Below, piece by piece: positions 17,354 through 54,486 of a DNA stretch of 64,000 nucleotides. The notes under the pieces are model-generated. The model was given only the letters and a program-made list of their open reading frames with translations, was not told the origin of the DNA and made no database searches. Position 1 is the first letter of the stretch, and each line of letters opens with the position of its first letter. Source of the DNA: an uncultured delta proteobacterium (lineage in GTDB: Bacteria; Desulfobacterota; Desulfobacteria; Desulfobacterales; JAHEIW01). A program made the position numbers and the translations under genes. The DNA is taken from assembly GCA_963706575.1 (NCBI GenBank), contig CAVPNL010000012.1:32001-96000 (forward strand). The letters run 5' to 3'.

Positions 17354-17502
17354 GAGACAATTGAGCTATAGGAGGTATCCCCAAAAACATAACTTTCCTA
17401 ACTGTTGGACAACAGGGTCAAGTTCTCAATCTCTGCCGATGCCGGATAATGGAAAGGATCTATTGAATCGGTGGATAACCGGACCGCACGCTTGAAGGGA
17501 TC

Positions 17503-19152: not shown

Positions 19153-19155
19153 ATT

Positions 19156-19761: not shown

Positions 19762-19794
19762 TACTTGAATTTTACACGCGCCGGAGGCCAAACA

Positions 19795-20723: not shown

Positions 20724-21254
20724 TTAAGATGCTTTCTGAAACCCAGAAAAACTGGCTTCTGATTTTTCAATATCCACTTCTGTGTCGAGGCCCGCACCGA
20801 TGTTGCTCACGAATTGACTTTCCAACTTTGAGCGCTGACCTTTTATGATGGACTCATAAATTCTTTTCATCTGACCGACAGCATCCGCACGCAGGCGAAG
20901 ACTGATGCGAGTCTTTTGAGGTTCGATTTCCTCGAGGTCCAAAATCATATGTAATTTTGTTACCGTTTCGGTAGCGACTTTTCCGAATTTTTTTAGGTTT
21001 TCTCCGGCTTCTGTTTCACCTCTGGCTTCAAGATGCCGGTTGTCTCTTCGCTCGATAATGGACATCGTCGCCTTACTATCAAGGGGTATCAGCCCGAGCT
21101 TTAAACGTAGATCACACACCACCGTATCGTCATCCAGCACTTCATAATCAACCATTGTCGGTACGCATTGAGCTACGGAATGCACATTGTTGAAAAAATT
21201 CCACACAGTTTCAACATCCTTTTCCGCAATTAAAATATTATCCAGACTGATCAT
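20724..21254 (-). CDS. CoxG-like SRPBCC-domain protein
   Basis: VETVWNFFNN...VAQCVP motif typical of CoxG. Confidence 0.75.
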   Translation of the reverse strand: MISLDNILIAEKDVETVWNFFNNVHSVAQCVPTMVDYEVLDDDTVVCDLRLKLGLIPLDSKATMSIIERRDNRHLEARGETEAGENLKKFGKVATETVTKLHMILDLEEIEPQKTRISLRLRADAVGQMKRIYESIIKGQRSKLESQFVSNIGAGLDTEVDIEKSEASFSGFQKAS

Positions 21255-21286
21255 AGATGAACTCCTTTATTGCTATTTGAACGTTG

Positions 21287-22867
21287 CTAAGATTCCCACC
21301 ATTTATCCAGGCCGTGATCTTCAGCGATTATTTCCGCTGCGATCAAGGCAGCAGCACCAATAATTCCGCCCCCCGGGTGGCCGCAAGCACCGCAGAGGTA
21401 AAGATTTTCAATGGGTGTCCGGTATTGCGACAACTCGGGCAAAGGTCTAAAGTATTCCAACTGACCCAGCATTGTTCGCCCCATAAAAACACCGCCCTTT
21501 TTCATGTTATACAGTTTTCTTTCGATGTCCAGCGGAGAGAAGGCTATTTTTTTGATAATGTTTTTGTCGTTTAGATTCGGAGCATATTCTCGCCATTTCC
21601 CGATGCAATGGTCCATGTAATCATTTTTGATATTGTCCCAACCCTGTGCCCCCCCTTCTTTAAGATCATAAGGTGCGGGCTGCCATATCAAGGCGGTATG
21701 CTTTCCTTTGGGTGCCTGGCTGGAATCAAATAAAGTGGGAATTGAGCAAAACAGCCCCGGATGCTCAGGAAGTTTTCCCGATCTTATTTCGGCCCAGAGC
21801 AACTGATAATCTTCAGGAGTTTCCAGGCCGATATTGAGCTTGAAAGCCCGATCGATATCCGGGTTAAAATTTGCTGCTGTATGGAAGGGCGGTTCATTCA
21901 ACGCCAGATGAACCCCGAAGATCGAAAATTCATCCAAAATAAAGCTTTGGATTTTTTTTATAAAATTTTCCTCCAGATGCGCTTCATCAATCAACTCTAA
22001 AAAAGTTTGTTTCAAATCGATAGCGCTAGCCACTAGCTTGTTGGCGTGATATTTTTCACCCCCTAAAACTTCAACCCCTTTGGCCTGGCCGTTTTCAATT
22101 ATGATTTTGTTTACATGTGAATACCCAAGGGCCATTCCGCCATTGGCAAAGTATGATCGCCATAGGGCGTGTGCCAGCACATGGGAACCTCCGATACAGA
22201 TTTGAGAATGTTCGACCTGACTGACGATCAAAGGAATTACCGTGCCCAGTCCGTCGTAGTCATGGGCAATACCGCGAGGAATCGGCAGCTGATGGAGAAT
22301 TAAAGCTTTCACATGCTCATTTTCAAAATATTCATCTAGTACGTCTTTGGGGTTCAGCCTGCCCATTCTGACAAAATCCAGCCCTTCCGGACTTGCTTCC
22401 AAAATTCCCAGTTGTTCTGAAGGCAGCTGCGGGCGCGTATATAACGCAGGCACCACAACCGACTCCATAAAATCCCCGTAGTTCTCATTCATCTCCCTGT
22501 AAGCCTGCGCATCGTGCTTTGACACTCTCGCAATCGATTCGCAGGTTTTTTCGAGATCAACATGGACCGTGACGGCCGTTCCATCTGCCAGTGCAATGCC
22601 GGCTTGTACTGGAGGTCGAAAATATCTGGCGTTGTAGTCTCCAAGTTTCAAATCGATAAAAGAAGGCATGATATTTATTGTGTCATGAAAGTAGGAATGC
22701 AAATTATGCAGGAACCCCGGAATGGTAACTTCCTCCGTACTTAACCCCCCGCCAATTTCTACCCGCCTTTCAAGAATCAGGGTCTTTAGCCCTGCTTTTG
22801 CCAGGTAGTTACCTAAGATGAGTCCGTTATGTCCTCCGCCAATGATAATGGCATCGAAGACTTTCAT
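21287..22867 (-). CDS. FAD-dependent oxidoreductase, phytoene desaturase/PYROXD2-like (paralogue 2)
   Basis: DAIIIGGGHNGL, LERR..IGG, APKGKHT, YRTPIENLYLCGACGHPGGG. Confidence 0.9.
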   Translation of the reverse strand: MKVFDAIIIGGGHNGLILGNYLAKAGLKTLILERRVEIGGGLSTEEVTIPGFLHNLHSYFHDTINIMPSFIDLKLGDYNARYFRPPVQAGIALADGTAVTVHVDLEKTCESIARVSKHDAQAYREMNENYGDFMESVVVPALYTRPQLPSEQLGILEASPEGLDFVRMGRLNPKDVLDEYFENEHVKALILHQLPIPRGIAHDYDGLGTVIPLIVSQVEHSQICIGGSHVLAHALWRSYFANGGMALGYSHVNKIIIENGQAKGVEVLGGEKYHANKLVASAIDLKQTFLELIDEAHLEENFIKKIQSFILDEFSIFGVHLALNEPPFHTAANFNPDIDRAFKLNIGLETPEDYQLLWAEIRSGKLPEHPGLFCSIPTLFDSSQAPKGKHTALIWQPAPYDLKEGGAQGWDNIKNDYMDHCIGKWREYAPNLNDKNIIKKIAFSPLDIERKLYNMKKGGVFMGRTMLGQLEYFRPLPELSQYRTPIENLYLCGACGHPGGGIIGAAALIAAEIIAEDHGLDKWWES

Positions 22868-22986
22868 TTTCCCGCTCTCCTAATTCATGAAAAACAAGCT
22901 GCAAAGGTTAATTGCCCTGCACAATGCTGATTTTCTTTATTCCAAAATATATACTTAAAAGTTCGCCTGACCGATAATGTCCATTA

Positions 22987-23802
22987 TTACTCGATTTGGA
23001 TAATACTATTATCCGGCAGACCCAGCTTAAGATGTTTCAGGGCCTGTTCCACCTGACGCTTTTGATAAGCTTCCAATGTAATCAGGACGCTTGAGCAGCC
23101 GTTTTTTCCGGCAGGATAGGAGCCAATGGTTACTGTTTTGTGAAACACAGCGACTTCGTTCAAAAATGTTGCGATTTCCGATTCGCACTGGGCCACATAG
23201 ACTTTTTTCAAAAATAGCGTATTATTCCCTAAATATTTGGTGCTGACAAAAAATTTGGCTTTCAACAGTTTCGGTACGCCCGGTAAAATGAATACATTTT
23301 TAAATTTTATCAGAGGGAATTTGAGGCACTTATCCATAATGAGCTCAGCCCCTTCGGGGGTCTGTGCCATTTTAAGGTTTTCAGTGGTCAGATGATCACC
23401 AAAGCGCTCGTGCAACAGGACTTTTAAATATTGATTAACAACCGGTTGCACATTGAAAGCCCCGGATATGGCTTCAATGGTGACATCGTCATGGGTGGGT
23501 CCGATTCCCCCGGAAGTGAAAACATATGTAAATCGATTCGAAAAAAATCTTATCGTCTCTCTAATTGCATCGATTTCATCTGGAATAATGGCCGTACATC
23601 CGACTTTTACGCCATGTGCACTCAGCTCCCTTGCCATGAACATTGAGTTGCTGTCTTTGATCATTCCCGAAAGGATCTCATTGCCGATAATCACGATACC
23701 TGCAGTGAATTCCTGAAAATCAACCTGCTTAAATGGCGCGACATGATGGCGAGCGCTAACGTTATCTTTGGGTACGGGATTTAACACATTCATTTGAATC
23801 AT
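22987..23802 (-). CDS. CinA/MoeA-like molybdopterin-binding-domain protein (FAD-hydrolase-like)
   Basis: IIGNEILSG...DSN, TSGGIGPTHDDVT, ILPGVP, IGSYP. Confidence 0.85.
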   Translation of the reverse strand: MIQMNVLNPVPKDNVSARHHVAPFKQVDFQEFTAGIVIIGNEILSGMIKDSNSMFMARELSAHGVKVGCTAIIPDEIDAIRETIRFFSNRFTYVFTSGGIGPTHDDVTIEAISGAFNVQPVVNQYLKVLLHERFGDHLTTENLKMAQTPEGAELIMDKCLKFPLIKFKNVFILPGVPKLLKAKFFVSTKYLGNNTLFLKKVYVAQCESEIATFLNEVAVFHKTVTIGSYPAGKNGCSSVLITLEAYQKRQVEQALKHLKLGLPDNSIIQIE

Positions 23803-23934
23803 CCTTTAATGGTAAGGTTTACAGTCTAATCATCAACGACATATTAAGCATAAAAATTTAAATCGCTCTGGTCTCCTTTACCATAATCCTATAAGAACAA
23901 ACCCTGCGGTATTCGGTAAGGCTGAAACTCAGAA

Positions 23935-24150
23935 TTAAAGTTTACGATCCGGCAGGTAAATAACCTCGCGGATGGGCTTCGAGAGTCCTCCAAATGCCGT
24001 TCCCCTGGGAGGCCCGTGTGCTTTTTTTTCTTCCGGGTCAAAATATGCATCACAGTGAGGACAATGACGCGGTAGATCCTGACCATATAGACCTGCATCA
24101 CAATGGAAGGAATTTTTACATTCGGGGCATTTGATATAATAGATTTTCAT
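23935..24150 (-). CDS. Small Zn-ribbon protein downstream of UbiD
   Basis: CPEC...CPHC, 71 aa, starting 14 bp after the UbiD stop. Confidence 0.75.
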   Translation of the reverse strand: MKIYYIKCPECKNSFHCDAGLYGQDLPRHCPHCDAYFDPEEKKAHGPPRGTAFGGLSKPIREVIYLPDRKL

Positions 24151-24164
24151 TGGTTTTATTCCGT

Positions 24165-25568
24165 TTAAATTTTAATATACTTTTCAAGCCGGATTCGCTT
24201 CAATATTTCCTCGGGAACCGCTGCTTTTGGTAGGTAAGCACGGTCCAGGGGCCGGGTGGCATCGATGACCATGCCCGACCCTCTGGTTTCCTGTTTGAGA
24301 GAAGGATCCAGCAATTGACCCTGTATGTTGTTTAAGATGGTCAGATCTGAGTCCGCCTGGCAGCAGCATGCTATGGCCCACATGACCGCTTTGGCGTCTC
24401 CAGGATCAATGTCCGCATCCACCACGATGACATGTTTTATAAAATTGCTGGCACTCAGTGCGGCCATGGCTGCGCGCATGGGCTCGCCTTCGGTTTTTTT
24501 TTGCATGCTAATCACCATATGAAAGGGGCCGCCGGAACTCAACCAGCAAACATCTTTTACACCCGGTATGGCCTGCTTAGCCCTTTGAAAGATGCTGGCC
24601 TCAATCGGGAAATGGGCATTGAGATGATCCAGATGGGCGCCGAAAACACAGTGCATGATGGGTTGTTTACGACAGGAAATGGCTCTGGCGCGAAAAAGCC
24701 ATGAGACCCGCTGAGCCCCGATCAAACGTGTAAACTCTCCGAAAGGTCCTTCAATGGTTCGTTTTTGAGGGACGATTTCGCCCTCGATCACCGCCTCTGC
24801 GTCAGCGGGAATGAGCAGACGATCCCCATAGGTTTCAGAAGGCACGACTCTCAACGGCTGGCCCAGGAGACCGCCGGCGACTTCATATTCGTCATCCTCC
24901 AGATGCGTGAGCGCCGACGCGGCAAGCATAAAGCCCATATGGTGCCCGAGAACAACACCGATGGGCAAGGGTTTGCCTCTGGATTCGGCTTCTTGAAAAT
25001 ATGTCCACAGGTGCCGGGGAGACATGTAAATGGCCATGTGATGGGAATCCATATACATCATACGGTTCCACGATGTGTTGTAGCGTTTTTTGTCAGGGGC
25101 TCGGGTCACTACGACCGGTGTCAGGTAAGGTCCGCCGTCCTGGGCATTGTGTCGCATGATCGGCAGGTCTGCCAGGTCCAGCGACGCCTCGCGAATGACG
25201 ACTTCTTTGACAGGTGCCTCTGCAGATTCAACCACGGTTACGGGGTAGCGCTGTTTGGAAATTTTCAGGTAGTGTTCAAAGAGCGCCGCCCGTTGAGAAA
25301 TTTCCCGGTCCCATGATACGGCGATCTTTTCATGTGTCGTAAAGGCATGGCTCAGCAACTGAAACTTCGTCGGCTCGCCTTTCACACTGGTGACCTTCTC
25401 GAAAAGGACGGCCTCCAGTTTCCCGCGTTCTTCCAGCTTATGCAGGATTGCTGAAACTTCAAACTGCGCGGGCTGCACCTTGCGGGATACCGTTAACGGC
25501 TCACCGGGAATTCGGGTTTTAAGATCATTTAACCAGCTGCGCAGGTCTTTTGGCATGTCATTCTCCAC
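24165..25568 (-). CDS. UbiD-family prFMN-dependent (de)carboxylase
   Basis: DLRSWL, DGGPYLT, EGPFGEF catalytic motif, VIVVDADID, LDPS, IDATRP. Confidence 0.9.
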   Translation of the reverse strand: MENDMPKDLRSWLNDLKTRIPGEPLTVSRKVQPAQFEVSAILHKLEERGKLEAVLFEKVTSVKGEPTKFQLLSHAFTTHEKIAVSWDREISQRAALFEHYLKISKQRYPVTVVESAEAPVKEVVIREASLDLADLPIMRHNAQDGGPYLTPVVVTRAPDKKRYNTSWNRMMYMDSHHMAIYMSPRHLWTYFQEAESRGKPLPIGVVLGHHMGFMLAASALTHLEDDEYEVAGGLLGQPLRVVPSETYGDRLLIPADAEAVIEGEIVPQKRTIEGPFGEFTRLIGAQRVSWLFRARAISCRKQPIMHCVFGAHLDHLNAHFPIEASIFQRAKQAIPGVKDVCWLSSGGPFHMVISMQKKTEGEPMRAAMAALSASNFIKHVIVVDADIDPGDAKAVMWAIACCCQADSDLTILNNIQGQLLDPSLKQETRGSGMVIDATRPLDRAYLPKAAVPEEILKRIRLEKYIKI

Positions 25569-25582
25569 AGGCTACCGAGCGT

Positions 25583-27196
25583 TTACTCAAGGTTTGACCA
25601 CAGGGTTTGCGGATCCGGCGGATCCCACCAGATTTTTAACTTAAGGTCTTCACAAATGACTCTGGCAGCATTGTAACCTGGAGCTCCGGTGATATTTCCG
25701 AAGGGATGGGTGCTTGATCCGCATAGATACAGCCTTTCAATCGGTGTTCGATATGGTTTAATCTCCGGGAATGGCCGATTATCGAGCATTTGATCATGCA
25801 GGGCTCTTCCCACGCAATGATCCCCGTATCGCATATTAATCAGTTTTCTTTCAACATCCAGCGGCGTAAATATGTAGTGAGCGATAATGTTGTCCCGGTT
25901 GAGATTGGGTGCATATTGTCTCCACCGCTCAAGGCAGACTTCCATGTAGTCTTCTTTGATGGTGTCCCATTCCTCGGCACCGCCTTTATTTAGGCGATAG
26001 GGAGCCATCTGCCAGAGAAAAGCGGTGTGCTTGCCTGCCGGTGCCTGGATCGGATCGTGCAGCGTGGGTTGCGCACACTGCATGCCCGGTTTTTGGGGAG
26101 GCTTTCCGGCATCGATTTCTTTTTCATGCGCGAAATAATCTTCCAAACACTCCAAGCCAATATTATAGTTGAAACCCTGATTGATATCCGGATCGAATTC
26201 AGCTGCGGTATAATGCAGGGGTTCATTCAGCGCTAGATGAACGCCGAAAAGCGGAAACTTGGAGAATTTAAACCCCTTTACTTTTTCAGCAAAATTGGAT
26301 TCCAGGTTGTCCTCTCCCACCAGTTCAAGAAACGTTTGCGGTACATCCACTGAACTGGCAACCAGCTTGGCGGCTTTTATTTTCCGCCCGTCATTCATGA
26401 TTACCCCCACAGCGCGGCCCGCTTCGATAATAATCTCGCGCACATGGGCCGCCTCTCGAATTTTGCCGCCGTGGGTTTCAACAAATTTAGAAATGCCATG
26501 TGCCAGGTAATGTGACCCGCCTTTGCACATGCTTCCCCTGAGGCCACCAATCATGGCCGCGGCAACATTGAAACCCAATCCCGGCTCATGTGCCAGAAAC
26601 ATACGGGTGGTCACCAGGAAGATAATCATTGCCTGCATTTGTTCGCTTTCGAAAAACTCTTTTGTTAAAGCCACCGGTGATTTTTCACTCAGGGCAAGAT
26701 ACTCACGGCCCAGCCCACTTTTTCCCAATAAAGCCTTTTTTTCTGCAAATGGAATCGGCGGTGAATAACTTTCGGGTGTAATAATTTTGTCACTTATTTC
26801 CTGGAAAAGAGACATGAGCTTACGGTAGGTACGGGCATCCTTTTCAGAAAAATAAGAAATATTTTTGATGGTTTTTTCCAGGTCACTATGAAACACGAGG
26901 CATTTGCCGTTGCCGTAGGGAGCGACTGTTTGGACATTGGGCATGATCATGCGAATTCCGAAATGCTCCAGCTCCAAATCCCGGTACCACGGAAGATCCG
27001 GCACCCATCTGAGAAAAAACGAATGCAAATTGTGATAAAATCCCGGAACCGTTATCTCCTCTGTACAGAGCCCGCCACCGGGCTCCATACGTCGTTCTAA
27101 AACCAGGGTACTCAAACCTGCCTTTCTCAGGTAGGCGGCCAGAATTTGACCATTATGCCCGCCACCGATAATGATGGCATCAAAAATCTCTTCCAT
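25583..27196 (-). CDS. FAD-dependent oxidoreductase, phytoene desaturase/PYROXD2-like (paralogue 1)
   Basis: DAIIIGGGHNG, APAGKHT, YRTPIERLYLCGSSTHPFG.ITGAPGYNAA. Clearly paralogous to 21287-22867. Confidence 0.9.
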   Translation of the reverse strand: MEEIFDAIIIGGGHNGQILAAYLRKAGLSTLVLERRMEPGGGLCTEEITVPGFYHNLHSFFLRWVPDLPWYRDLELEHFGIRMIMPNVQTVAPYGNGKCLVFHSDLEKTIKNISYFSEKDARTYRKLMSLFQEISDKIITPESYSPPIPFAEKKALLGKSGLGREYLALSEKSPVALTKEFFESEQMQAMIIFLVTTRMFLAHEPGLGFNVAAAMIGGLRGSMCKGGSHYLAHGISKFVETHGGKIREAAHVREIIIEAGRAVGVIMNDGRKIKAAKLVASSVDVPQTFLELVGEDNLESNFAEKVKGFKFSKFPLFGVHLALNEPLHYTAAEFDPDINQGFNYNIGLECLEDYFAHEKEIDAGKPPQKPGMQCAQPTLHDPIQAPAGKHTAFLWQMAPYRLNKGGAEEWDTIKEDYMEVCLERWRQYAPNLNRDNIIAHYIFTPLDVERKLINMRYGDHCVGRALHDQMLDNRPFPEIKPYRTPIERLYLCGSSTHPFGNITGAPGYNAARVICEDLKLKIWWDPPDPQTLWSNLE

Positions 27197-27213
27197 GTTC
27201 GTCTCATTCCTGG

Positions 27214-27939
27214 TTAATTAATTTGCTTCTGGGTCCGCTTTCCACCTAAATAGGCCTCCTGGACCTTTTGGTTGGCATAAAGCTCATCGCCGCTACCCTC
27301 TAAGACGATATTGCCGTTTTCGAGAACATATCCACGGTCGGCAATTTTCAGGGCCTTGCGGGCGTTTTGCTCTACTAAAAGAATGGCGACATCTTCACTT
27401 TTGAGTGCTCGAATTCTGGAAAAAACTTCATTTACCAGCATCGGCGCCAGTCCCAGAGAGGGTTCGTCCATCATTATCAACGTTGGTTTGGCCATCAGCG
27501 CGCGTCCGATCGCCAACATCTGCTGTTCGCCACCGCTGAGTGTTCTGCCCAGCTGGTGTTGCCGCTGTTGGAGAATCGGAAATATCTGGAAGACCTCCGG
27601 CAGGGACTGTTTTAAATCTTCGCTTGCCCTGGTGAATCCGCCCATCAGGAGATTCTCCATAACTGTCATCTCACTAAAAATTTCGCGTCCTTCCTGAATC
27701 AGAGAAATCCCCTGGCGCACAATTTTGTGAGGCGCCAAACGGACGATATTTTTTCCTTTGAAGAGAATCTCCCCCTTGCGAGGTACAAGAATCCCTGAAA
27801 TAGTGCCCAGCAGGGTTGATTTGCCGGCACCATTGGCGCCGATGAGCGTGACAATCTCTCCCGTTTTGACCTCAAGATCAACGCCCTTCAACACCTGTAT
27901 GGCGCCATAACCGGCTTCAATGCCTTTGACTGCAAGCAT
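27214..27939 (-). CDS. livF: HAAT/LIV ABC transporter ATP-binding protein
   Basis: GANGAGKST, LSGGEQQMLAIGRALM, DEPSLGLAP. Confidence 0.9.
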   Translation of the reverse strand: MLAVKGIEAGYGAIQVLKGVDLEVKTGEIVTLIGANGAGKSTLLGTISGILVPRKGEILFKGKNIVRLAPHKIVRQGISLIQEGREIFSEMTVMENLLMGGFTRASEDLKQSLPEVFQIFPILQQRQHQLGRTLSGGEQQMLAIGRALMAKPTLIMMDEPSLGLAPMLVNEVFSRIRALKSEDVAILLVEQNARKALKIADRGYVLENGNIVLEGSGDELYANQKVQEAYLGGKRTQKQIN

Positions 27940-27946
27940 AGATAAC

Positions 27947-28696
27947 CTACTCTTCCTCTCGTCCCAGATAGGCCTCTATGACGGCCTCACTGGTCTGAAT
28001 TTCTACAGGCGTACCCTTAGCGATCACGGATCCAAAGTTCAGCACGGATATATAATCGCAGATGCCCATAACGATATTCATGTCATGCTCGATCAACATG
28101 ATGGTCTGGCCCATATCCCGGATATCCTGGATCCTTTCCAACAGATCCTCGGTTTCTACCTCGTTCATGCCTGCAGCCGGTTCATCCAACAGCAAAAGCT
28201 CGGGGGCCAGCGCAAGTGCTCGTGCAATTTCCAGGCGTCGCTGGTCGCCGTATGCCAGGCTGATGCTCGGTTCATTTCGTTTTCCCCAGAGCCCCATTTT
28301 TTGCAATAAAACTTCGGCCTCTTCCTGTAATTTTCTCTCCCTGGCACTTAGAAGCTGGACCAGACTGAGAATGCCGGATCGTGCTCTGATATTCTGAGCC
28401 ACCAGCACATTATCCATAACGGTCATGGTGCCAAAAAGTCGAATGTTTTGAAATGTACGCGCGATTCCCAGTCTGGCAATTTTGTTGGGCGGCAGTCGGG
28501 TTAATTCCTTTCCGGAGAACCGGATTGAGCCCTCGGTTGCGGGTAAGAGGCCGGTAATGATATTGAATAGCGTTGTTTTCCCAGCGCCATTGGGGCCGAT
28601 GAGTCCATAAATCTGTTTTTCCTTCACCTCTAAACCAATATCATTAAGGGCCGTCAATCCGCCGAAATTTTTGGTGACGTTGGCAATCTCCAGCAT
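27947..28696 (-). CDS. livG: HAAT/LIV ABC transporter ATP-binding protein
   Basis: GPNGAGKTT, ARTFQNIRLF, LAYGDQRRLEIARAL, DEPAAG. Confidence 0.9.
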   Translation of the reverse strand: MLEIANVTKNFGGLTALNDIGLEVKEKQIYGLIGPNGAGKTTLFNIITGLLPATEGSIRFSGKELTRLPPNKIARLGIARTFQNIRLFGTMTVMDNVLVAQNIRARSGILSLVQLLSARERKLQEEAEVLLQKMGLWGKRNEPSISLAYGDQRRLEIARALALAPELLLLDEPAAGMNEVETEDLLERIQDIRDMGQTIMLIEHDMNIVMGICDYISVLNFGSVIAKGTPVEIQTSEAVIEAYLGREEE

Positions 28697-29551
28697 TCAG
28701 GCACCTGCCTTTCGAAAAATTCCGGAAACGAGTTCCTCGACCCGTCTTACCATCATGGGTGTAATGATCCCGGAGGGCCGGAAAATTAGCATCAACACCA
28801 GAACGGCACCATATAAACTCAGACGCCAGTCCTGCATGAAGCGCAGCATTTCGGGCAATATGCTGAAAATAATGGCCCCCACGACAGCACCCCAGAAGGT
28901 ATACATCCCCCCTAAGATGACGTATAGGATGGCCATGGTCGATACCAGAATATGGAAGCTGTTCGATTCGATGTAAAACATGTAATGAGCGTAAAGGCCG
29001 CCGGCCACGCCTGCAATAAAAGCGCCCAGCCAGAAGGCACCGAGTTTCAACAGCTTAACATTTAGTCCGATGGAACTGGCCACTTCCGGGTCGTCCCGTA
29101 CCGCAGCCAAAGAGCGTCCCAGACGCGAATGGCTCAGGAGCCAGAAGAATAGGATAAATGCCAGCACCCAGCCGAATATCATCGGCACAGTGGCTCCGAT
29201 CGGGCCGCGGAAACCATAAGCGCCTCCGGTAGGTTCAAAATTTAAGAAAAAGGTGCGAACGACTTCGCCAAAGCCGAAGGTGGCCATGACGATATATAGA
29301 CCCGAAAGCCTGAGGACCGGAATTCCGACCAGCAGGCCCATAAAACCAGCGACCAGAGCGCCGATGACAATGGCGGGAAATATGGCCAGGCCGGTTTTGA
29401 CCGTAAGATAGGCGGAAGTGTAGGCACCGATCGCCATGAATCCCGCATTTCCAAGTGAAACCTGATCTGTGGATATGATGGCATACACGCTCAGCGCCAT
29501 CAGGATGTTAACGCCCATAAGGGCCACGACCCCCTGCATGTAAACGCTCAT
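28697..29551 (-). CDS. livM: HAAT/LIV ABC transporter permease
   Basis: SLGNAGFMAIGAY, LRLSGLY, GRSLAAVRDD, VILGG. Confidence 0.9.
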   Translation of the reverse strand: MSVYMQGVVALMGVNILMALSVYAIISTDQVSLGNAGFMAIGAYTSAYLTVKTGLAIFPAIVIGALVAGFMGLLVGIPVLRLSGLYIVMATFGFGEVVRTFFLNFEPTGGAYGFRGPIGATVPMIFGWVLAFILFFWLLSHSRLGRSLAAVRDDPEVASSIGLNVKLLKLGAFWLGAFIAGVAGGLYAHYMFYIESNSFHILVSTMAILYVILGGMYTFWGAVVGAIIFSILPEMLRFMQDWRLSLYGAVLVLMLIFRPSGIITPMMVRRVEELVSGIFRKAGA

Positions 29552-29563
29552 TGCCGCTAGCTC

Positions 29564-30430: not shown

Positions 30431-30498
30431 CACGATCTCCGGCAAAAGATTTTCCAGGGGCGGTGCGAATGACCGCCCCTGATTAATTGAGCGCAATA

Positions 30499-31707
30499 TT
30501 ACGGCCTGCTGATGGGTACCCAGTGACCCCCTTTGATTTCAAAGACGTGTACATCTTTGATGCCATCGCCGTCTTCATTGAAGCCTCTGCTGGCGACCCC
30601 TTTGAAATCATTAAGCTTGGTGAAATACTGCATGATTTTTTCTCTGTCACCTGCAAGCGCATCGGGCTTATTGGTGACGCCTGTCTTCTGAATGGCCTCT
30701 ACGATCATAAAAACCGCATCATAGGCATTTACGGGATAATAATCCGGCGTAGCCGTATAAGGACTGGCATACATTGTTTTGGCACGTTTTTCGTAAGCCG
30801 CGATGAACTTCTTGCTGTCCTCAGATGCCAGGCTGAGGTGCCATATCGTTCCCGAAAACGTTCCCATGACGGCCTCGCCGCCCAGTTCAGGAACCTCTCC
30901 CTCCATAATGGGGGCGGTGCTCATAAAAGGCTGCTTCAGACCCTGCCGGCGGGCCTCCGTAATGATATTGAGCGCATCCGGCCCTAAAGCACCCATCCCG
31001 ATCCCATCCGGATTCATGGCTTTGAGTTTGGTAATCTGAGCTTTGAACTGAGTGTCATTGGTCTGGAAGGTAACCGGCTCGTCTCCGGTCATAACGTCAA
31101 TCCCCAGCTTTTTAAACGTCGGCGGCAGCACTTTAGTTCCAACGGCCTTGGATACGGCGTCCTTTATATCTGTGATAATGGCAACCTTTTTAATATTGTA
31201 TCTTTCCTTAAATGCAGAGATCACCGCCCCGGCTATTTTATCTTCTGTTAGCGTGTTGCGGAACGCATACGGACGATTGGCAGCTGCAAGTCCCGGCTTG
31301 GATGAAGCCACCGCAACCTGGACGATTTTAAGCTGATTTCCCAGGGGAAATGTTGTTTCGGCCACCGAACTATAATGCGGCCCGACAATCGCAATCACCT
31401 TATGGTCACCCGCCAGCTTGCGCACGACATTGACCGCTTCCTGAGGGTTGCTGGCCGTATCCTCGACAAACAGTTTCAGCTGCAAGCCGCCAACTCCGCC
31501 CATAGCATTGATAACATCTACAGCCGCCTGAGCGCCAATGGCCTCACGTTTGCCGACATTGGCACCATGGCCCGTAATCGGCACCGCCACGCCGATTTTG
31601 ATCTCCTTGCCCTCCAATGCCTGGGCGGTAGAGGATGTATAAAAAGTAACGGCTGACACGAATAAAACCAAAATCGCCAACATGATAATTCTGCTTTTCT
31701 TTTTCAT
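30499..31707 (-). CDS. HAAT/LIV ABC transporter substrate-binding protein (LivK-like)
   Basis: Signal peptide; IKIGVAVPITG, INAMGGVGG, YDAV. Confidence 0.9.
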   Translation of the reverse strand: MKKKSRIIMLAILVLFVSAVTFYTSSTAQALEGKEIKIGVAVPITGHGANVGKREAIGAQAAVDVINAMGGVGGLQLKLFVEDTASNPQEAVNVVRKLAGDHKVIAIVGPHYSSVAETTFPLGNQLKIVQVAVASSKPGLAAANRPYAFRNTLTEDKIAGAVISAFKERYNIKKVAIITDIKDAVSKAVGTKVLPPTFKKLGIDVMTGDEPVTFQTNDTQFKAQITKLKAMNPDGIGMGALGPDALNIITEARRQGLKQPFMSTAPIMEGEVPELGGEAVMGTFSGTIWHLSLASEDSKKFIAAYEKRAKTMYASPYTATPDYYPVNAYDAVFMIVEAIQKTGVTNKPDALAGDREKIMQYFTKLNDFKGVASRGFNEDGDGIKDVHVFEIKGGHWVPISRP

Positions 31708-33566
31708 GATCTTAATCCTCCTTTGCTTGTGTTAAGTGGAATACTTTTGGCCTCCTTTGTCAGTTCAAGCTTTATCAACAGGTTTAATGTCGGATTACCG
31801 TTTGGTTCCCATTGACGCGTGCGATAGTAATCATCTAGTAATCGATCGAGTTCAACAACATGTCCCCTGGCCGGGCCTTGCGGCATGGGCTCATCTAAAA
31901 GCCTGGGTGGCAGGGTATCCTCTTTGCGGGAAAATCCCTCACGAATGTTAAATAATCTTTCCAGATTCCAAATTCGGTCACCGGCCTCCATCAGCGACTC
32001 GGCCGTCCATGATTTTCCGGTGACACAGGAAAGAAGCTCGGCAATTTCCGCCATTTCCATACCGTCGTTATGGGGGGGGAATACGCACACGCCCAGGGAA
32101 TCAAGGACGGCGGTTTCATCCTGGGTTTCTTTGACCACCTTGCCTTTGCCGTCTATCGCCAGAGGATCAATAAACGGCGGCGCCCCGAAAGTTTCCCTTG
32201 CGATGAGTCCGCGCTCATGGCACCCGCCTCTGGGCGAAGTGGCATACTCAATTCCCATGCCTTTGGCGCCACGCGGATCATAGGCAGCCAGCTCCAAACC
32301 TTTGGCGTGCATGGCAAATTGTTCGGCCCCTTTGCCGATTTGTTCGGCGGCGCGGCGGACACCTTCGGCCAGCAGATCGCCGATCCCCTGTCGGCTTCCG
32401 ATTTTGCGGATCATTTCCACCATGGCCGAATGGTTGCCAAATTTTAAATTCAGCCCGTCCAGCTCCTGGGTTGTGAGGAGTCCCTTTTCAGCGCACTCCA
32501 TCGCAAAAGCAATGGCGCTTCCGGTGGAGATGGTGTCCAATCCCAGTTGATCGCACAGGCGGTCAGCTGCGATAATCGCATCAATGGAGCTGTTACCGCA
32601 TTGAGCGCCAAAGGCCCAGAAAGTTTCATACTCGGGGCCTTCGGTGCTGATACCCTCATAAGGTCCTTCGGCCGCCCGGGTAAGGTTGCCGCATGCGACC
32701 GGACACTTATGACAGGTCACCGCACTTGTGACCCGTTTTTGTTGCTCGACGGCATTTACCTTGTCGATGCCTTCAAACACGCCCTGCTGGAAATTGCGGG
32801 TCGGAAAAAGGCCCCGGGCGTTAACGAGGACGAGGTTGTTGGGCGTGCCAAATTTTCCGAACTGCTTAAGGCGCTCGATGGCGGGGACCTTTTTACGGAT
32901 GGCCTTTTGAATTTTATTAAACGTTTGCGGATCCGAGATCGGAACATTTCTTGACCCCTTTACGGCAATCGCCTTGAGGTTTTTCGCGCCCATTACCGCA
33001 CCGGCACCGCCACGGCCGGCCGCGCGCCAACCGCTGATGATGCAGGCAAACCGCACGGATTTCTCCCCGGCAGGTCCGATACAGGCCATCTCAATCGACG
33101 GCTGGTTTAATTCTTTGCGGATGGCATCCTGGCATTCGTCTGTTGTCATCCCCCCAAGATGGTTGGCACTGCGAAATTCAACCTCACCATTATCAATCCA
33201 CAGATAGGTGGGCTCATCCGACCGGCCCTCGATGATAAGCCCATCGTATCCGGCAAAGCGAAGATTTGGACCGAAGAAACCGCCGGCTAAGCTCATTAGA
33301 ATCGTTTCCGATAGCGGAGATTTTGTCACGACCGTGTATTTAACGCACCAGGGAGCTCCGGTTCCGAGCAATGGGCCGGTCAAAAACAGCAACTTATTTT
33401 CAGCACTGAGTGCATCCACATGCGGTGCCAGTTCATCAAATAAAATTTTGGCGCCAAGGCCCCGGCCGCCCAAAAATTTATCGATCCAAGATGGGCGGAT
33501 TATTTCCTCCTGTATTTTTTTCTGTGACAGATTTATTCTGAGGATGACAAAACTAAAATCTGGCAT
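31704..33566 (-). CDS. aor: Tungsten aldehyde:ferredoxin oxidoreductase (AOR family)
   Basis: LGGRGLG, KSPL, GRGGAGAVMGAKNLKA, CHKCPVAC, GPEYET, CDQLGLDTIS, YDPR, NLERLFN...DTLP. Confidence 0.92.
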   Translation of the reverse strand: MPDFSFVILRINLSQKKIQEEIIRPSWIDKFLGGRGLGAKILFDELAPHVDALSAENKLLFLTGPLLGTGAPWCVKYTVVTKSPLSETILMSLAGGFFGPNLRFAGYDGLIIEGRSDEPTYLWIDNGEVEFRSANHLGGMTTDECQDAIRKELNQPSIEMACIGPAGEKSVRFACIISGWRAAGRGGAGAVMGAKNLKAIAVKGSRNVPISDPQTFNKIQKAIRKKVPAIERLKQFGKFGTPNNLVLVNARGLFPTRNFQQGVFEGIDKVNAVEQQKRVTSAVTCHKCPVACGNLTRAAEGPYEGISTEGPEYETFWAFGAQCGNSSIDAIIAADRLCDQLGLDTISTGSAIAFAMECAEKGLLTTQELDGLNLKFGNHSAMVEMIRKIGSRQGIGDLLAEGVRRAAEQIGKGAEQFAMHAKGLELAAYDPRGAKGMGIEYATSPRGGCHERGLIARETFGAPPFIDPLAIDGKGKVVKETQDETAVLDSLGVCVFPPHNDGMEMAEIAELLSCVTGKSWTAESLMEAGDRIWNLERLFNIREGFSRKEDTLPPRLLDEPMPQGPARGHVVELDRLLDDYYRTRQWEPNGNPTLNLLIKLELTKEAKSIPLNTSKGGLRS

Positions 33567-33612
33567 TTCCCTATCCTAAAGGTTAATGATTGATATTCGT
33601 GAAAACCATATT

Positions 33613-36200: not shown

Positions 36201-36231
36201 CAGGTAATCTCCCTTAATATAGATAACAAAT

Positions 36232-37398
36232 TCATTTTTCGCCATAAGCCTCCTGGAAGAGGCTAATGGCCTGTTCTTCAGAGACTTCGCGTATGTTCAT
36301 GTAAATCAACCGTTGGCCGGCTTCATGGGCTCTAAGCGCGAGCGCTTTTACCTCCTCCCTTTTTATTCCATAATCTTTGAGGTAAGGTGAAAAGCCAACC
36401 TTCTCAAAAAGGTGCATAAATACCTCGTGGGCTTTCAGGTACGGCTTTTGGGTAGGGAGCCCATCAAGGTTGTCTGCAAGAGCTTTGGCAATATCTGCGT
36501 AAAGCGTTTCGTTGCCAATGCTGTTAAATCGAATCACCCAGGGTGCCAGCACGGCCAGTGATCGACAGTGGGTAAACCCATCCAGGGCATCAATACCCAG
36601 AGCAAGGGCATGTATAGCACCCAGTCCACCATTGGAGCAACCAATTCCGGCAAGTGTTGCCGCGCGGGCCATGGCCTCTCTGGCTTCGAGGTCCGAGCCC
36701 TGCTGATATGCTTTGATAAAATATTTACCGATTAATCGTATGGCCTCCAATGCGTATAATCGGCTCACTGGATTGGCCTGGCGGGATGTGTAACCTTCTA
36801 CCGCGTGCAGAAGCGCATCCAGCCCCGTTTCCGCTGTAAGCCTGGGCGGCATATCCAAAGTTAACTCTGGATCTACAACGGCTGCTTCTGCCATCGTACG
36901 GGGATCCCAGATTGATTTTTTGACTTTTTCCTGCGGGTCTTCGACCACCACTGCCTGGGTGGCCTCGGTGCCGCTGCCGGCAGTCGTCGGCACCAAAATG
37001 ACGGGAATCCCTTTTTTTCTCAAGAGGTTTCTTCCCAGAAGCGGTCGCATGCCATCTTCATGGGTTGCGACCACTGCGGCTCCTTTTGCCACGTCCATTG
37101 GAGAGCCCCCGCCAAGACCGATAATCAGATCAGCCTTTGTTTCCCGGGCCTGGTTGGCACAATCTTCAACAATGGCAATATCCGGCTCCGGTTTGGGGTT
37201 GATAAAGATTTCAGCACAGCCCCTGTAAGCCCCCATGGCCTGCAGCGCGCGATCTACAAGGCCCAGTTTCTCAATCGTCGGGCCGCTGACTAACAGAATC
37301 TTGCGGGGTTCGATTGTTTCGATAACCCACTTAATCTGGCTCAGTGCTCCCGGGCCGATGTATAGGCTTTTGGGTTGGACGATGTTATACATGCGCAT
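36232..37398 (-). CDS. Iron-containing alcohol dehydrogenase
   Basis: GLGGGSPMDVAK, PTTAGSGTEAT, DALLHAVE, GAIHAL. Confidence 0.92.
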   Translation of the reverse strand: MRMYNIVQPKSLYIGPGALSQIKWVIETIEPRKILLVSGPTIEKLGLVDRALQAMGAYRGCAEIFINPKPEPDIAIVEDCANQARETKADLIIGLGGGSPMDVAKGAAVVATHEDGMRPLLGRNLLRKKGIPVILVPTTAGSGTEATQAVVVEDPQEKVKKSIWDPRTMAEAAVVDPELTLDMPPRLTAETGLDALLHAVEGYTSRQANPVSRLYALEAIRLIGKYFIKAYQQGSDLEAREAMARAATLAGIGCSNGGLGAIHALALGIDALDGFTHCRSLAVLAPWVIRFNSIGNETLYADIAKALADNLDGLPTQKPYLKAHEVFMHLFEKVGFSPYLKDYGIKREEVKALALRAHEAGQRLIYMNIREVSEEQAISLFQEAYGEK

Positions 37399-37508
37399 TG
37401 TTTATTTTTAACTACAAGTTAAAGGTGTTGCTCTCAATCGGCCCGAAACCCCATGGTTTCTGAAACCCAATAATCTAATCCGGTGGAAATCAACATCCGA
37501 AAATCGAT

Positions 37509-38213
37509 TCAGGTTTTTAAATAATCAAGGACATTGATTTGGTATTCACATGCCAGGAATCTGTCCATGCGTTGGTCAATGAGCTCACAGCGGAAATGAG
37601 AGCCATAAATAATTTCATCCGTTAGAACTGGCAGGGTGCCGGAAAATATTACCAGCCCGTCAGCCATGTCGTCGATCATTTTTGATTTCACCAGTTCCAT
37701 AAGTTCTGTTGCTGAGATGATACTTTCTAACGGGGCTTTCTGGTATAAAATGGCTTCGTGCCCATCAGTCTTGGTAACTTTACTTTGCAATATCAACTCG
37801 TCCCAGCCTGATTTGACATCGTCATAATTCCAGACCTGTTTTGAGATTACATTTGGGCATACCTGCTTGGACTTAATAATACTGTGCCTTTCGATATCCC
37901 GATCGGTATGGTCACTGCCCACGGCAACAAAAACGCCGCCCGAATTTAAAAGCAAGGCAAACTCCGCTTCTCCTGAAGTTTTGCGACCGACAACTTCTAT
38001 CTTATCGGCGGTGGTGATGTTGTGGCCTAGTACGGGAAATATCATCGGAACCGATGGGGGAGGAGGGACACCTTCTTTGCTCAGTTCTTCGATGTGATCA
38101 ACAACCGCCTGTCGGTCTCTGCCGACATAGCCGGCATTAATCATTCGCTCGACTTTAAATTGTATTGTTTCCAACCGGTTTCCGCTGACGACCTCTAAAT
38201 CCATTGTTTTCAT
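37509..38213 (-). CDS. DUF2848 family protein (FAH-like fold)
   Basis: INAGYVGRD..AV..HIEEL, TSGEAE, GSDHTDR, SKQVCPN, FSGT. Confidence 0.85.
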   Translation of the reverse strand: MKTMDLEVVSGNRLETIQFKVERMINAGYVGRDRQAVVDHIEELSKEGVPPPPSVPMIFPVLGHNITTADKIEVVGRKTSGEAEFALLLNSGGVFVAVGSDHTDRDIERHSIIKSKQVCPNVISKQVWNYDDVKSGWDELILQSKVTKTDGHEAILYQKAPLESIISATELMELVKSKMIDDMADGLVIFSGTLPVLTDEIIYGSHFRCELIDQRMDRFLACEYQINVLDYLKT

Positions 38214-38263
38214 AGCGATCCCCGCATAATTTTTATTAAGTCGCTTTACAGCCGAGAACCCAC

Positions 38264-38449
38264 CTACTTTTTATCGCTGAGCAACACCCCACCTGAACCT
38301 GTATTTTCCTTTGGAAATTCGAGCAGATGAATCATAAATTTTTCTTCCGGAATATTGTAGGCGTCGCTTGCGATTTTGGTTATTTTTTCGACAAGGATTC
38401 TCTTTTTATCCAGAGATAATGCTGGGCCTTCGATTGATATGTGCGGCAT
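38264..38449 (-). CDS. 4-oxalocrotonate tautomerase family protein (DmpI-like)
   Basis: MPHISIEG (catalytic Pro1) ... GSGGVLLSD, 61 aa, AAGGAGG RBS. Confidence 0.85.
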   Translation of the reverse strand: MPHISIEGPALSLDKKRILVEKITKIASDAYNIPEEKFMIHLLEFPKENTGSGGVLLSDKK

Positions 38450-38487
38450 ATAAAACCTCCTTTATTATTTTCTTCATCCAGAAGCAT

Positions 38488-39156
38488 TTATTGATTTTCA
38501 ACCAGTGATTTTTCGGTTGCTGCTAAATGATATTTTATTGATTCAGCGGCCTCTTGCTTATTTTTCTGCTTAAGCGCCTTAATAATTGTCTGATGTTCTT
38601 TGATCACCTCATGGATTCTCCCCGGACTGGCCAAGGCCTTTTGGCCAAAGATGGCGATCAGGTCACGAATGTTTTCCATAATTGAGGTCAAGAACCGGTT
38701 GCCGTATCTGTGAATCAAATTCATGTGAAATGCTTTGTCAGTTTCTAAAAAGCCATAAATATCGTCTTTATCAGCGCAATTCTTCATCTGAATCATTATT
38801 TCATCAAGTTCACTTAGATTGAGTTCAATGCTAGAGTCGACCAGCTGCTCAATGATATAAGATTCGATCATTTGGCGTGTTTCAAAAAACTCCTTAATTC
38901 GATTTTCAGAAAATTTTTTAATTTTAAATCCGCGGCCCTGCATGGAAGTCAGCAATCCTTCGGCACTGAGTTGTAACAGCGCTTCGCGAACGGGTGTTCG
39001 GGATACTCCCAAGATTTCAGCAAATTGATTAGTGGAATAAATTGAGTCAAAATCCAACTCGCCGCCGATAATAAGACCTTTGATCCTGTCATATGCCAGT
39101 GCCTGCAGCGTCCCGGGCCGTTCAATTTTATTCATATTTTCCATTGTTTTATACAT
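38488..39156 (-). CDS. GntR/FCD transcriptional regulator
   Basis: LGVSRTPVREAL HTH; DKAFH and EHQTII FCD motifs. Confidence 0.92.
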   Translation of the reverse strand: MYKTMENMNKIERPGTLQALAYDRIKGLIIGGELDFDSIYSTNQFAEILGVSRTPVREALLQLSAEGLLTSMQGRGFKIKKFSENRIKEFFETRQMIESYIIEQLVDSSIELNLSELDEIMIQMKNCADKDDIYGFLETDKAFHMNLIHRYGNRFLTSIMENIRDLIAIFGQKALASPGRIHEVIKEHQTIIKALKQKNKQEAAESIKYHLAATEKSLVENQ

Positions 39157-39505
39157 TTATTCGAAGGGATATGGTTGGAGGTTTTAAATGTCCTGTATGT
39201 AGTATACCGCATGTAGCATGTCAATTGTTTTTACCGGATTATGCCCTAAAATGCATCATTTTTCTAAGATCTGTGAATTCAATTTCCGACATTAACAAAT
39301 TACGCGCTTTGACGCTTTAGTTACTTTCCTAATTTACCTCCTTTGCGGTTAAAAGGTTTGACATACGCGAAAAGCCGGAGGTAAATTTATGATCGCCATT
39401 TAGTAGGTGCATACAGAACTATTGGCAAAAGTCCACACCTGTCATCTCACGACAGCACCCATACAAGGAACCCTATTCTTAAAGAAGGGGTAAGATCGGG
39501 AAGAC

Positions 39506-54458: not shown

Positions 54459-54486
54459 AACCCATGGATTTTAGAAAGGAAAAAAA

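Follow-up and report, generated by a model that had tools for sequence, protein, structure and literature searches.

The window analysed here is a stretch of 64,000 nucleotides from an uncultured delta proteobacterium (positions 32,001 to 96,000 of contig CAVPNL010000012.1, assembly GCA_963706575.1), and it contains a cluster of 18 genes that we studied together with a partner module elsewhere in the same genome. The host genome (G000) is 5.67 Mb in size, and the proteins most similar to its own carry the labels Desulfobacterales or Desulfobacteraceae. A reading that we rate as somewhat less likely than not is that the cluster serves an undescribed O2-free route degrading substituted pyrroles or vitamin B6: a covalently flavinylated pair of proteins would hydroxylate a heteroaromatic methyl group with water, a relative of the dehydroxylases would act on the nitrogen-containing ring, and the product would feed a coenzyme A (CoA)-dependent trunk with DUF2848. 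The parts are all of known enzyme kinds; their combination is new and conserved. A preliminary description of this DNA could not match the gene set to a characterised pathway, and we likewise found no description of it in the literature searched, in which subscription journals are mostly outside coverage.

As that description had it, the 18 genes are co-oriented. All 18 open reading frames (ORFs) are intact, lie on the minus strand between positions 20724 and 39156 and follow the order then given, with intergenic spacing of -14 to 132 bases (Table 1). One start was corrected: that of the molybdenum (Mo) enzyme gene is most likely at 36200, with GGAG upstream, which gives a protein of 753 amino acids (752-754 in the orthologues) and turns a 14-base overlap with the alcohol dehydrogenase (ADH) gene into a 31-base gap. 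Pfam and NCBIfam back every earlier family label except that of the Zn-ribbon gene: no Pfam match of it passes the cut-off, and it encodes 71 amino acids with two CxxC pairs, a proline-containing tail and orthologues elsewhere. A Pfam scan bore out the absence of any CoA ligase or CoA transferase within the cluster itself. The GC content of the cluster (0.44-0.53) is near the genome mean (0.484) and its flanks are unrelated: on the left, a sulfopyruvate-decarboxylase-like alpha/beta pair and an EamA transporter gene (18625-20703, plus strand) converge on the cluster end, and on the right a methyltransferase gene diverges from it. DNA runs with at least half of the stretch's words come from estuary, sediment and marine-sediment metagenomes (9 rows from 6 studies; one may be the source).

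Scans for promoters and for terminators stayed at the level of chance (28 versus 22.8 expected and 25 versus 23.0, respectively). In four RNA runs, 29, 25, 12 and 30 of 30 bins of the cluster had depth, as had 28, 29, 12 and 26 in a control stretch of the window; this cover is thin and no higher than in the control, and gives no evidence of the expression or co-transcription for which a metatranscriptome check had been suggested.

Table 1. Positions of the cluster genes, the promoter repeat and the partner module (window coordinates unless a contig or locus is named)
Feature	Position	Strand	Basis
Operator-like tandem, two imperfect 16-bp palindromes over the TTGACA -35 box of the gntR promoter	39197..39226		matrix scan
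GntR/FCD regulator	38488..39156	-	PF00392+PF07729
4-oxalocrotonate tautomerase family protein, local accessory	38264..38449	-	NF041920 over cut-off
DUF2848, FAH-superfamily fold, predicted hydratase/hydrolase/tautomerase of ring-opened amide	37509..38213	-	PF11010
Iron-containing alcohol dehydrogenase (Fe-ADH)	36232..37398	-	PF00465/PF25137
Cytoplasmic bis-PGD Mo/W enzyme, catechol-dehydroxylase/acetylene-hydratase clade, 753 amino acids	33939..36200	-	PDB match, N-terminal motif
Small Fe-S partner subunit, 109 amino acids	33613..33942	-	Fer4 domains
Aldehyde:ferredoxin oxidoreductase (AOR family)	31704..33566	-	AFOR_N/C
LIV-type solute-binding protein, predicted non-amino carboxylate binder	30499..31707	-	ligand residues vs LivJ
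LivH, LivM, LivG, LivF-type permeases and ATPases, 4 genes	27214..30496	-	Pfam/NCBIfam
Flavoprotein 1, COG1233-type, covalent-flavin His58 motif	25583..27196	-	motif, clade
UbiD (prenylated-FMN) decarboxylase, HmfF branch, optional	24165..25568	-	TIGR00148 over cut-off
Zn-ribbon protein, predicted VdcD-like small subunit of UbiD	23935..24150	-	two CxxC pairs, orthologues
CinA N-terminal/FAD-synthase-associated protein, accessory	22987..23802	-	PF00994+PF24102
Flavoprotein 2, COG1233-type, covalent-flavin His57 motif	21287..22867	-	motif, identity to flavoprotein 1
CoxG/SRPBCC-fold protein, predicted carrier or third subunit	20724..21254	-	PF06240
Partner module: CoA ligase, DUF2848, HmfABC-clade hydroxylase and CoxG, importer, ADP-forming acyl-CoA synthetase, amidohydrolase	C1:293.7-307 kb (L011:11542-20000, L012:1-6392)		

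Conservation of the cluster and its partner module

Loci were gathered by a scan with the flavoprotein 1 alignment, which gave at least 79 genome loci and at least 73 metagenome loci (152 listed); some of these represent the same contig more than once, and many stop short of covering all genes. The Mo enzyme is present at 83% identity or more in 10 of the 152 listed loci (three of these 10 are one contig); with the threshold at 71% identity, the binding protein is present in 13 and this UbiD in 6. Since other genomes and metagenome contigs also have the orthologues (59-96% identity) in clusters, the grouping is more than chance. Six genomes carry the cluster: the host, G191 (a Desulfarculaceae record), G372, G396, G420 (a Syntrophaceae record) and G814 (a Ca. 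Desulfacyla euxinica record); in those other than the host, the gene order is rearranged and sometimes split over contigs. The core, made up of the Mo enzyme, the two flavoproteins, the CoxG-like protein and the importer, occurs in all six (about 47-86% identity in the five others); conserved synteny across distant anaerobes had been named beforehand as support for the proposal. Orthologues of Fe-ADH and the aldehyde:ferredoxin oxidoreductase (AOR) are present in five of the six; in the fragmented genome G814, no orthologue of ADH (best 31%) or AOR (best 43%) was found. The UbiD/Zn-ribbon pair, present in two of the six, is optional, and the tautomerase has no match in the other listed loci, most of which stop short of its position. 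Co-conservation thus holds for the core and largely for ADH and AOR, and does not extend to one fixed set of genes.

The distribution of the cluster within the host's own family and genus is patchy: no UbiD orthologue was found in 24 genomes of the family (best E 9e-43), and no Mo-enzyme orthologue in 4 genomes of the genus. Relatives of the Mo enzyme with 50-56% identity occur in 10 of 400 genomes of the class, in contexts that are unrelated among the matches listed and offer no substrate clue.

The partner module lies on contig C1 of the host genome (293.7-309.9 kb), where a CoA ligase, a second DUF2848, CoxL-CoxG-CoxM-CoxS and an importer adjoin, in back-to-back arrangement, the genes of a GntR paralogue, a Nit-family hydrolase and a cupin. 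The ligase gene is at C1:304037-305683, and two binding proteins are encoded at C1:294366-295544 and C1:308653-309852. Judged by its gene content, the module is a candidate anaerobic trunk for pyrrole-2-carboxylate or a similar acid. It is conserved at 63-83% in G191, G222, G372, G396 and G420. In locus L100 it begins 0.5 kb behind the UbiD/Zn-ribbon pair, and in G372 both modules share one 76-kb contig with CoA transferase, dehalogenase-like and PaaK-like genes, glutamine synthetase, a PadEFGHI-like complex and an aminotransferase. The earlier idea of a route lacking CoA chemistry is therefore not supported, as a CoA ligase and an HmfABC-like module accompany the cluster. Of 400 genomes of the phylum, 4 have an orthologue of flavoprotein 2 (73-77%). 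These 4 all have the C1-module ligase, which one further genome also carries (5 in total); the C1-module cupin (at least 63%) occurs in 6 of the 400, among them 3 of the 4 cluster genomes. The fifth ligase genome, G222, is 100% complete and has the trunk; orthologues of ADH, AOR and the Mo enzyme were not found there, as expected for a trunk.

The two modules also share a promoter repeat. The GntR regulator has a paralogue beside the second module (64% identical, C1:306670) and a 52% identical counterpart in G814, and an operator matrix was trained on two G814 sites and two C1 sites, with the window site left out. In the 14-base tandem model the site at the window gntR promoter ranks first in the 5.67-Mb genome (27.8; C1 training site 26.8; next 18.6), and in the 7-base model it ranks fifth. 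A plain scan at 3 mismatches missed this site, which only the matrix found. We infer that the repeat may function as an operator.

The best plasmid match of the trunk Mo hydroxylase is an HmfA-like protein of Geobacillus kaustophilus pHTA426 (53.5%; next paralogue 33.5%), with which it shares the RAPEP motif; it is sister to the HmfA rows (FastTree support 0.89), and the neighbouring trunk proteins are 46.6% and 44.4% identical to the Geobacillus HmfB-like and CoxG-like proteins. The Hmf labels of the pHTA426 genes are our own, from gene order and the accessible text of PMC3223595, which names the G. kaustophilus strain as a furfural degrader from unpublished data. Orthologues of HmfD and HmfE were not found in the trunk (best hits of 32-33% lie at other places, and the module ligase is outside the four best HmfD hits), and a cupin, DUF2848 and an amidase or nitrilase stand in place of HmfE. 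Two plasmid operons of aerobes (Caballeronia and Thioclava) have the same cupin-DUF2848-amidase cassette behind an HpaB-like monooxygenase, three more have it behind other enzymes, and a cupin, a nitrilase and DUF2848 are found in the G814 operon. The cupins of the aerobic operons are 50-65%, and their DUF2848 proteins 35-40%, identical to those of the anaerobes; this closeness of the cupins argues against a dioxygenase function. In the part of PMC6165268 available to us, pyrrole-2-carboxylate monooxygenase is listed in the HpaB enzyme group, and we infer a link of the aerobic cassette operons to pyrrole-2-carboxylate.

The cluster and its partner resemble the hmf pathway (HmfABCDE and HmfFG of Cupriavidus and G. 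kaustophilus pHTA426) in the HmfF-branch UbiD, the alcohol and aldehyde oxidation, the HmfABC-clade hydroxylase with CoxG in the same order, and the CoA ligase. They differ from it in that AOR replaces an NAD aldehyde dehydrogenase, the flavoprotein pair and the bis-PGD enzyme are added, the trunk ligase is not an HmfD orthologue, cupin, DUF2848 and amidase replace HmfE, UbiD lacks the HmfF arginine and UbiX is encoded elsewhere (C1:214109 in the host). The aerobic operons of Caballeronia and Thioclava have a related cupin and DUF2848, and in Thioclava a related binding protein (37-39% identical to those of the two modules), but require oxygen and are themselves uncharacterised. The window binding protein is 36-38% identical to that of an aerobic monooxygenase-cupin-amidase-DUF2848 operon.

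The region next to the trunk (C1:306.7-318.9 kb; L012:6674-18906) holds, besides the GntR, Nit-family hydrolase and cupin genes, an importer with livH split into two ORFs, two reductive-dehalogenase-like genes (TIGR02486 over cut-off), an old yellow enzyme (OYE) and a divergent UbiD, in which the catalytic EGPxGE reads DGPNPGP. Similar dehalogenase-like and PaaK-like genes stand beside the trunk in G372 and G222 and beside flavoprotein pairs in L038 and L043, so that they may be part of this regulon and not an islet of their own.

Predicted roles of the enzymes

Flavoproteins 1 and 2 (537 and 526 amino acids, 46.6% identical) fall, by a quick tree method, into two separate supported clades, flavoprotein 1 forming one of its own (11 rows, support 99), and both are present in all six genomes. 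The accessible text of PMC11061730 gives for delta-24 desaturase the motif G-F-L/R-X-N/S-T/L-H-A, whose His bears the covalent flavin, and reports the motif also in CtmAB; the window proteins match it at 6 and 7 of 8 positions (GF-Y-H-N-L-H in flavoprotein 1), and the His is kept in both and is invariant in both flavoprotein alignments (A1 and A3). CtmAB, as described in the available part of PMC4109377, hydroxylates a methyl group with water upstream of ADH and aldehyde dehydrogenase, and in Castellaniella these enzymes give a methyl-alcohol-aldehyde-acid series before CoA activation, the same series that the cluster could spell with Fe-ADH and AOR. A CtmAB-like oxidative role is more likely for the pair than ring reduction; the tie to CtmAB is one of resemblance, not of membership by activity.

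As in CtmAB and delta-24 desaturase, there are two paralogous COG1233-type flavoproteins (about 530 amino acids; 55-63 kDa range), each with the flavin-His motif, and as in CtmAB they are partnered downstream by ADH and an aldehyde-oxidising enzyme. Unlike in CtmAB, the two genes are separated by three others, and a CoxG-like protein and a soluble-acid importer are added; the compound acted on is likely a polar heteroaromatic acid rather than a terpene (limonene) or a sterol. Of a dedicated ferredoxin acceptor such as the CtmE/F pair, the window shows no candidate besides the Fe-S subunit of the Mo enzyme, and sister loci L043 and L063 have a small ferredoxin gene placed between the two flavoprotein genes. 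No solved structure was found for comparison with CtmA/B, and the model of flavoprotein 2 is poor (pLDDT 62), its fold matches (TM at most 0.3) being uninformative. A phytoene desaturase or ketolase identity was rejected, the NCBIfam scores (CrtO being the best match of flavoprotein 1) lying far under cut-off. The CoxG-like gene directly follows that of flavoprotein 2 in most loci reaching it; because it does so even in Acidobacteria, Nitrospinota and Betaproteobacteria, its product is probably part of the flavoprotein enzyme. Among the sister flavoprotein loci, an SDR (family F2) is found in 42 of 167, and some have aldehyde dehydrogenase, AOR or UbiD. With this pair, the small family of CtmAB and delta-24 desaturase could gain a third reaction.

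The best PDB match of the Mo enzyme is acetylene hydratase (2e7z, E 7e-104). In that enzyme Asp13, beside the Fe-S cysteine, has a catalytic role; here it is replaced by His (C-D-I-N-C of 2e7z aligns with C-H-G-G-C), so that an acetylene hydratase identity was rejected. By eye, the N-terminal W-S-x-G-P-G-C-H resembles the Cldh and Dodh rows of the alignment in the accessible text of PMC7028382, and the lack of a twin-arginine translocation (Tat) leader and the small Fe-S partner fit what that text and the available part of PMC11887054 describe. The enzyme groups in the catechol-dehydroxylase clade on the basis of the PDB match, this motif and this layout, so that the label 'dehydroxylase-like' is right as a clade call. 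The likeness to the Gordonibacter-type dehydroxylases Dodh and Cldh covers the absence of a Tat leader or membrane anchor, the small Fe-S partner, the W-S/T-x-P-G-C-H and GTGRN motifs and acetylene hydratase as nearest solved structure; however, in gut Actinobacteria Dodh and Cldh use catechols as electron acceptors, which they reduce, and the window enzyme belongs to an oxidative uptake-and-degradation operon of sediment anaerobes. It could give this large clade a first environmental substrate. Its identity in the five other genomes is 83-86%, and the Fe-S partner has orthologues of 70-93% adjoining the Mo gene. Fe-ADH is 59-66% identical in G191, G396, G420 and G372. AOR keeps the AFOR_N and AFOR_C domains and the Fe-S cysteines; its best PDB matches are AORs (E 7e-161 to 2e-133), and its orthologues in four genomes are 64-72% identical. 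The PBP_like_2 search cannot tell tungstate from phosphate binders.

UbiD keeps the catalytic Arg (SWNR), EGPFGE and His, and its best PDB match is HmfF (6h6v, E 4e-71), which is closer than VdcC (2e-44) or AroY (1e-30). The arginine of the GGI(A/P)RE helix of HmfF has a role towards the distal carboxylate; it is present in HmfF-type proteins of Pelotomaculum, Geobacillus and Cupriavidus, and is Ile in the window UbiD and five aligned orthologues, so that a true HmfF identity was rejected. This UbiD could bring a new specificity, useful for carboxylation chemistry. Among the five other genomes tested, only G372 has an orthologue of this UbiD; another UbiD clade (36-39%) occurs in G191, G372 and G396, and adjoins the second module in G372. 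The Zn-ribbon gene follows UbiD in all six loci with this UbiD (L095, L096, L097, L099, L100 and L183). VdcD has a small-subunit role in the VdcCD decarboxylase according to the accessible part of PMC8379154, and general background on UbiD classes is found in those of PMC8988006 and PMC10176493. The Zn-ribbon protein is predicted, by analogy, to be a VdcD-like small subunit of UbiD: as in VdcCD, a Zn-ribbon protein with four Cys and a tail that contains proline comes after UbiD, but the window large subunit is HmfF-like and no family match of the small protein to VdcD was detected. The CinA-like gene, with orthologues in L095-L097 and G814, possibly supplies FMN.

The binding protein is 23% identical to Escherichia coli LivJ and scores 98 bits against the cut-off of 477 for NF011933. 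In LivJ, Y202 and E226 are ligands of the amino group, and S79 and S/T102 of the carboxylate. The latter two are kept, and Y202 is replaced by L, E226 by A and Y150 by V in 7 of 7 aligned orthologues. This loss of the amino-group ligands with retention of the carboxylate ligands suggests that the ligand is an acid lacking an alpha-amino group. Amino-acid uptake was rejected, and the protein does not look like a binder of branched-chain amino acids; binding of those amino acids only is what the preliminary description had named as damaging to its proposal. Orthologues of LivH, LivM, LivG and LivF (68-83%) lie beside the binding protein.

The model of DUF2848 (pLDDT 82) has its best Foldseek matches all in the FAH family (E 2e-8, TM about 0.6). 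Copies of the protein occur in the G814 operon (61%) and the second module (41-46%). DUF2848 is named in none of the literature searched, with the journal coverage stated above, and the route, if true, would give it a function.

A candidate feeder-to-trunk route and competing readings

All pathway steps below are deduced from family and context, on top of the observed genes, motifs, synteny, co-occurrence and shared promoter repeat. In a two-part model for any N-heteroaromatic acid, the chances of which we regard as evenly poised, the cluster would be a peripheral feeder taking up an N-heteroaromatic carboxylate that bears substituents. Using water, the flavoprotein pair and the CoxG-like protein would oxidise a methyl or methylene carbon attached to the ring, in the way that CtmAB acts on limonene; Fe-ADH and AOR would convert the alcohol via the aldehyde to the acid; the UbiD/Zn-ribbon pair, where present, would remove the surplus carboxyl; and the Mo enzyme would remove or add one hydroxyl. 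The simple ring acid would then be handed to the trunk on C1, where the ligase would form the CoA ester, the HmfABC-like hydroxylase would act on the carbon next to the ring nitrogen, and cupin, DUF2848 and Nit-family amidase would open the lactam and release ammonia. For a pyrrole, this would be furoyl-CoA chemistry with nitrogen for oxygen, leading from the lactam through 2-oxoglutaramate to 2-oxoglutarate and ammonia.

The ring that we favour, though its assignment is itself rather doubtful, is pyrrole, with pyrrole-2-carboxylate degraded to 2-oxoglutarate and ammonia as the aza analogue of furoate. It would fit best because one hydroxylation next to the ring nitrogen is followed by hydrolytic steps; by our own chemical reasoning, CoA activation before Mo hydroxylation also fits an electron-rich five-membered ring. 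Of what was first envisaged, a dedicated, co-conserved and O2-independent unit for an imported (hetero)aromatic acid is supported; the lack of CoA chemistry is not, the 18 genes form no fixed set, and the flavoproteins are more likely oxidative than ring reductases. The genes by which strict anaerobes degrade substituted N heterocycles are poorly charted, and the cluster with its partner offers a testable short list of one binding protein, one regulator and four enzyme types.

Several points weigh against this proposal. No cluster gene has a characterised orthologue, and the kinship with CtmA/B rests on a motif and family calls. The most conserved gene, that of the Mo enzyme, is without a natural role in the pyrrole version: the characterised enzymes of its clade act on catechols (accessible parts of PMC7028382 and PMC11887054), and a simple pyrrole offers no catechol-type group. 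The fragmented genome G814 has the flavoproteins, Mo enzyme, importer and cassette, and not only ADH and AOR but also UbiD, the ligase and the HmfA-like protein were not found in it, so that the alcohol-aldehyde-acid series may not be an invariant part. The tandem operator occurs at three gntR promoters only and not before the cluster in other genomes; it may reflect autoregulation by paralogous regulators with different effectors. The co-occurring genomes belong to two families (f79 with three and f66 with one) plus that of the host, and are not independent. Finally, the dehalogenase-like and PaaK-like genes beside the trunk in the host, G372 and G222 are not explained by the proposal.

The same two-part design could act on a pyridine ring, chiefly in vitamin B6 breakdown via 4-pyridoxate, a sub-case that we consider fairly unlikely. 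By our own reasoning, 4-pyridoxate offers a handle to each enzyme: the carboxylate, a hydroxymethyl group for ADH and AOR, a methyl group for the flavoproteins, a ring hydroxyl for the Mo enzyme, and one carboxyl for UbiD to remove; 4-pyridoxate is, however, not a catechol. Pyridoxal 4-dehydrogenase is the first or third NCBIfam match of the SDR beside the sister flavoproteins (256 and 218 bits), but these scores are below the 325-bit cut-off, and the Mesorhizobium loti-type enzyme 3ndr is only fifth in PDB. OYE, GFO and PreA-like reductases, needed for a six-membered ring, lie beside the cluster in L018, L105 and L166, and NMT1/THI5-like binding proteins are common in sister loci; yet for the metallo-hydrolase beside the sister pair in L034, the best 60 of 99 PDB matches include no 4-pyridoxolactonase. 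The pairing of a CoA ligase with an HmfA-clade hydroxylase is also less expected for pyridine acids, which are hydroxylated as free acids in known routes. In the literature searched, with the same coverage, no text joined three of four B6-degradation terms. The lumichrome pathway, of similar logic, was set aside as it relies on a P450 (accessible text of PMC12746152).

The pyrrole and B6 variants both rely on methyl hydroxylation, and it is unlikely that the flavoprotein pair is instead an amine or N-alkyl dehydrogenase or a ring-aromatising desaturase, a reading that overlaps the others. A weak Amino_oxidase match and RidA-family imine deaminases beside the flavoproteins in L030 and G372 would suit an amine, delta-24 desaturase shows that the family can desaturate (accessible text of PMC11061730), and G814 may lack ADH and AOR; but a dedicated ADH in five of six genomes implies an alcohol intermediate, and the binding protein is without amino-group ligands.

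It is quite improbable that the cluster, independently of the C1 module, serves a carbocyclic phenolic route from methylcatechol, hydroxybenzyl alcohol or a halogenated analogue to hydroxybenzoate. The Gordonibacter-type clade of the Mo enzyme, the VdcD-like Zn ribbon behind UbiD, the dehalogenase-like genes near the trunk and the phenylphosphate-synthase-like genes with a sister flavoprotein clade (L019, L156, L194) agree with it, but the cluster co-occurs tightly with an HmfABC-like, amide-hydrolysing module and not with benzoyl-CoA genes, and UbiD is nearer HmfF than VdcC or AroY. An anaerobic furan route from 5-hydroxymethylfurfural, 5-methylfuroate or kin through furan-2,5-dicarboxylate and furoate to furoyl-CoA dehydrogenase is very unlikely, for even though the G. 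kaustophilus plasmid is the top plasmid match for UbiD (36%) and the trunk hydroxylase (54%), also carries Fe-ADH, aldehyde dehydrogenase and CoxG, and furfural-growing sulfate reducers are on record (accessible part of PMC3223595), the trunk has no clear orthologue of HmfD or HmfE, Ile stands in place of the HmfF arginine, the neighbouring genes for amidase, nitrilase and glutamine synthetase suggest a nitrogen compound, and UbiD is missing from four of six genomes.

Other loci and neighbouring genes

A second COG1233-type pair in the host (C4:97545-102131; L014:7546-12132) is about 30% identical to the window pair and has no His motif; the gene before it (397 amino acids) is aminomethyltransferase-like by eye. 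In L019, L156 and L194 (G302), the sister flavoprotein clade is accompanied by split phosphoenolpyruvate-synthase-like genes, an SDR and AOR, aldehyde dehydrogenase or UbiD, a set that we take to be a possible O2-free counterpart of cresol degradation via a phosphorylated intermediate. Four metagenome loci (L119, L138, L142 and L149) have a tandem flavoprotein pair, an SDR and UbiD, with nitrile hydratase genes in three, and one flavoprotein partner in this group has Ala for the motif His (HNTLAY). Single-copy relatives of flavoprotein 1 in Alphaproteobacteria (L020, L036, L045 and kin) stand beside DUF993, GFO, DHDPS-like, TIM-barrel and NMT1/THI5 genes, a setting that may be another uncharacterised N-heterocycle cassette. 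L193 (G086:C19) has four tandem COG1233-type genes with an SDR and genes looking GlcD/GlcF-like. A thiamine pyrophosphate-dependent pair similar to the sulfopyruvate-decarboxylase-like genes flanking the cluster lies near the flavoprotein pair in L034.

Elsewhere in the window, FHA, M48 peptidase-TerB, TerB and metallophosphoesterase genes lie at 13633-18603 (plus strand), a caspase-domain gene at 7620-9101, and the stretch 56921-57439 matches only the C-terminal part of GrdB. Short stretches at about 47350-47480, 54310-54460, 56620-56840, 59016 and 60790-60885 gather many partly matching contigs, and are probably a dispersed repeat or small mobile element. In the sediment genome G420, a class A beta-lactamase-like ORF (NF033103 over cut-off) lies between the cupin and an importer (L240:351-1571; contig C99).

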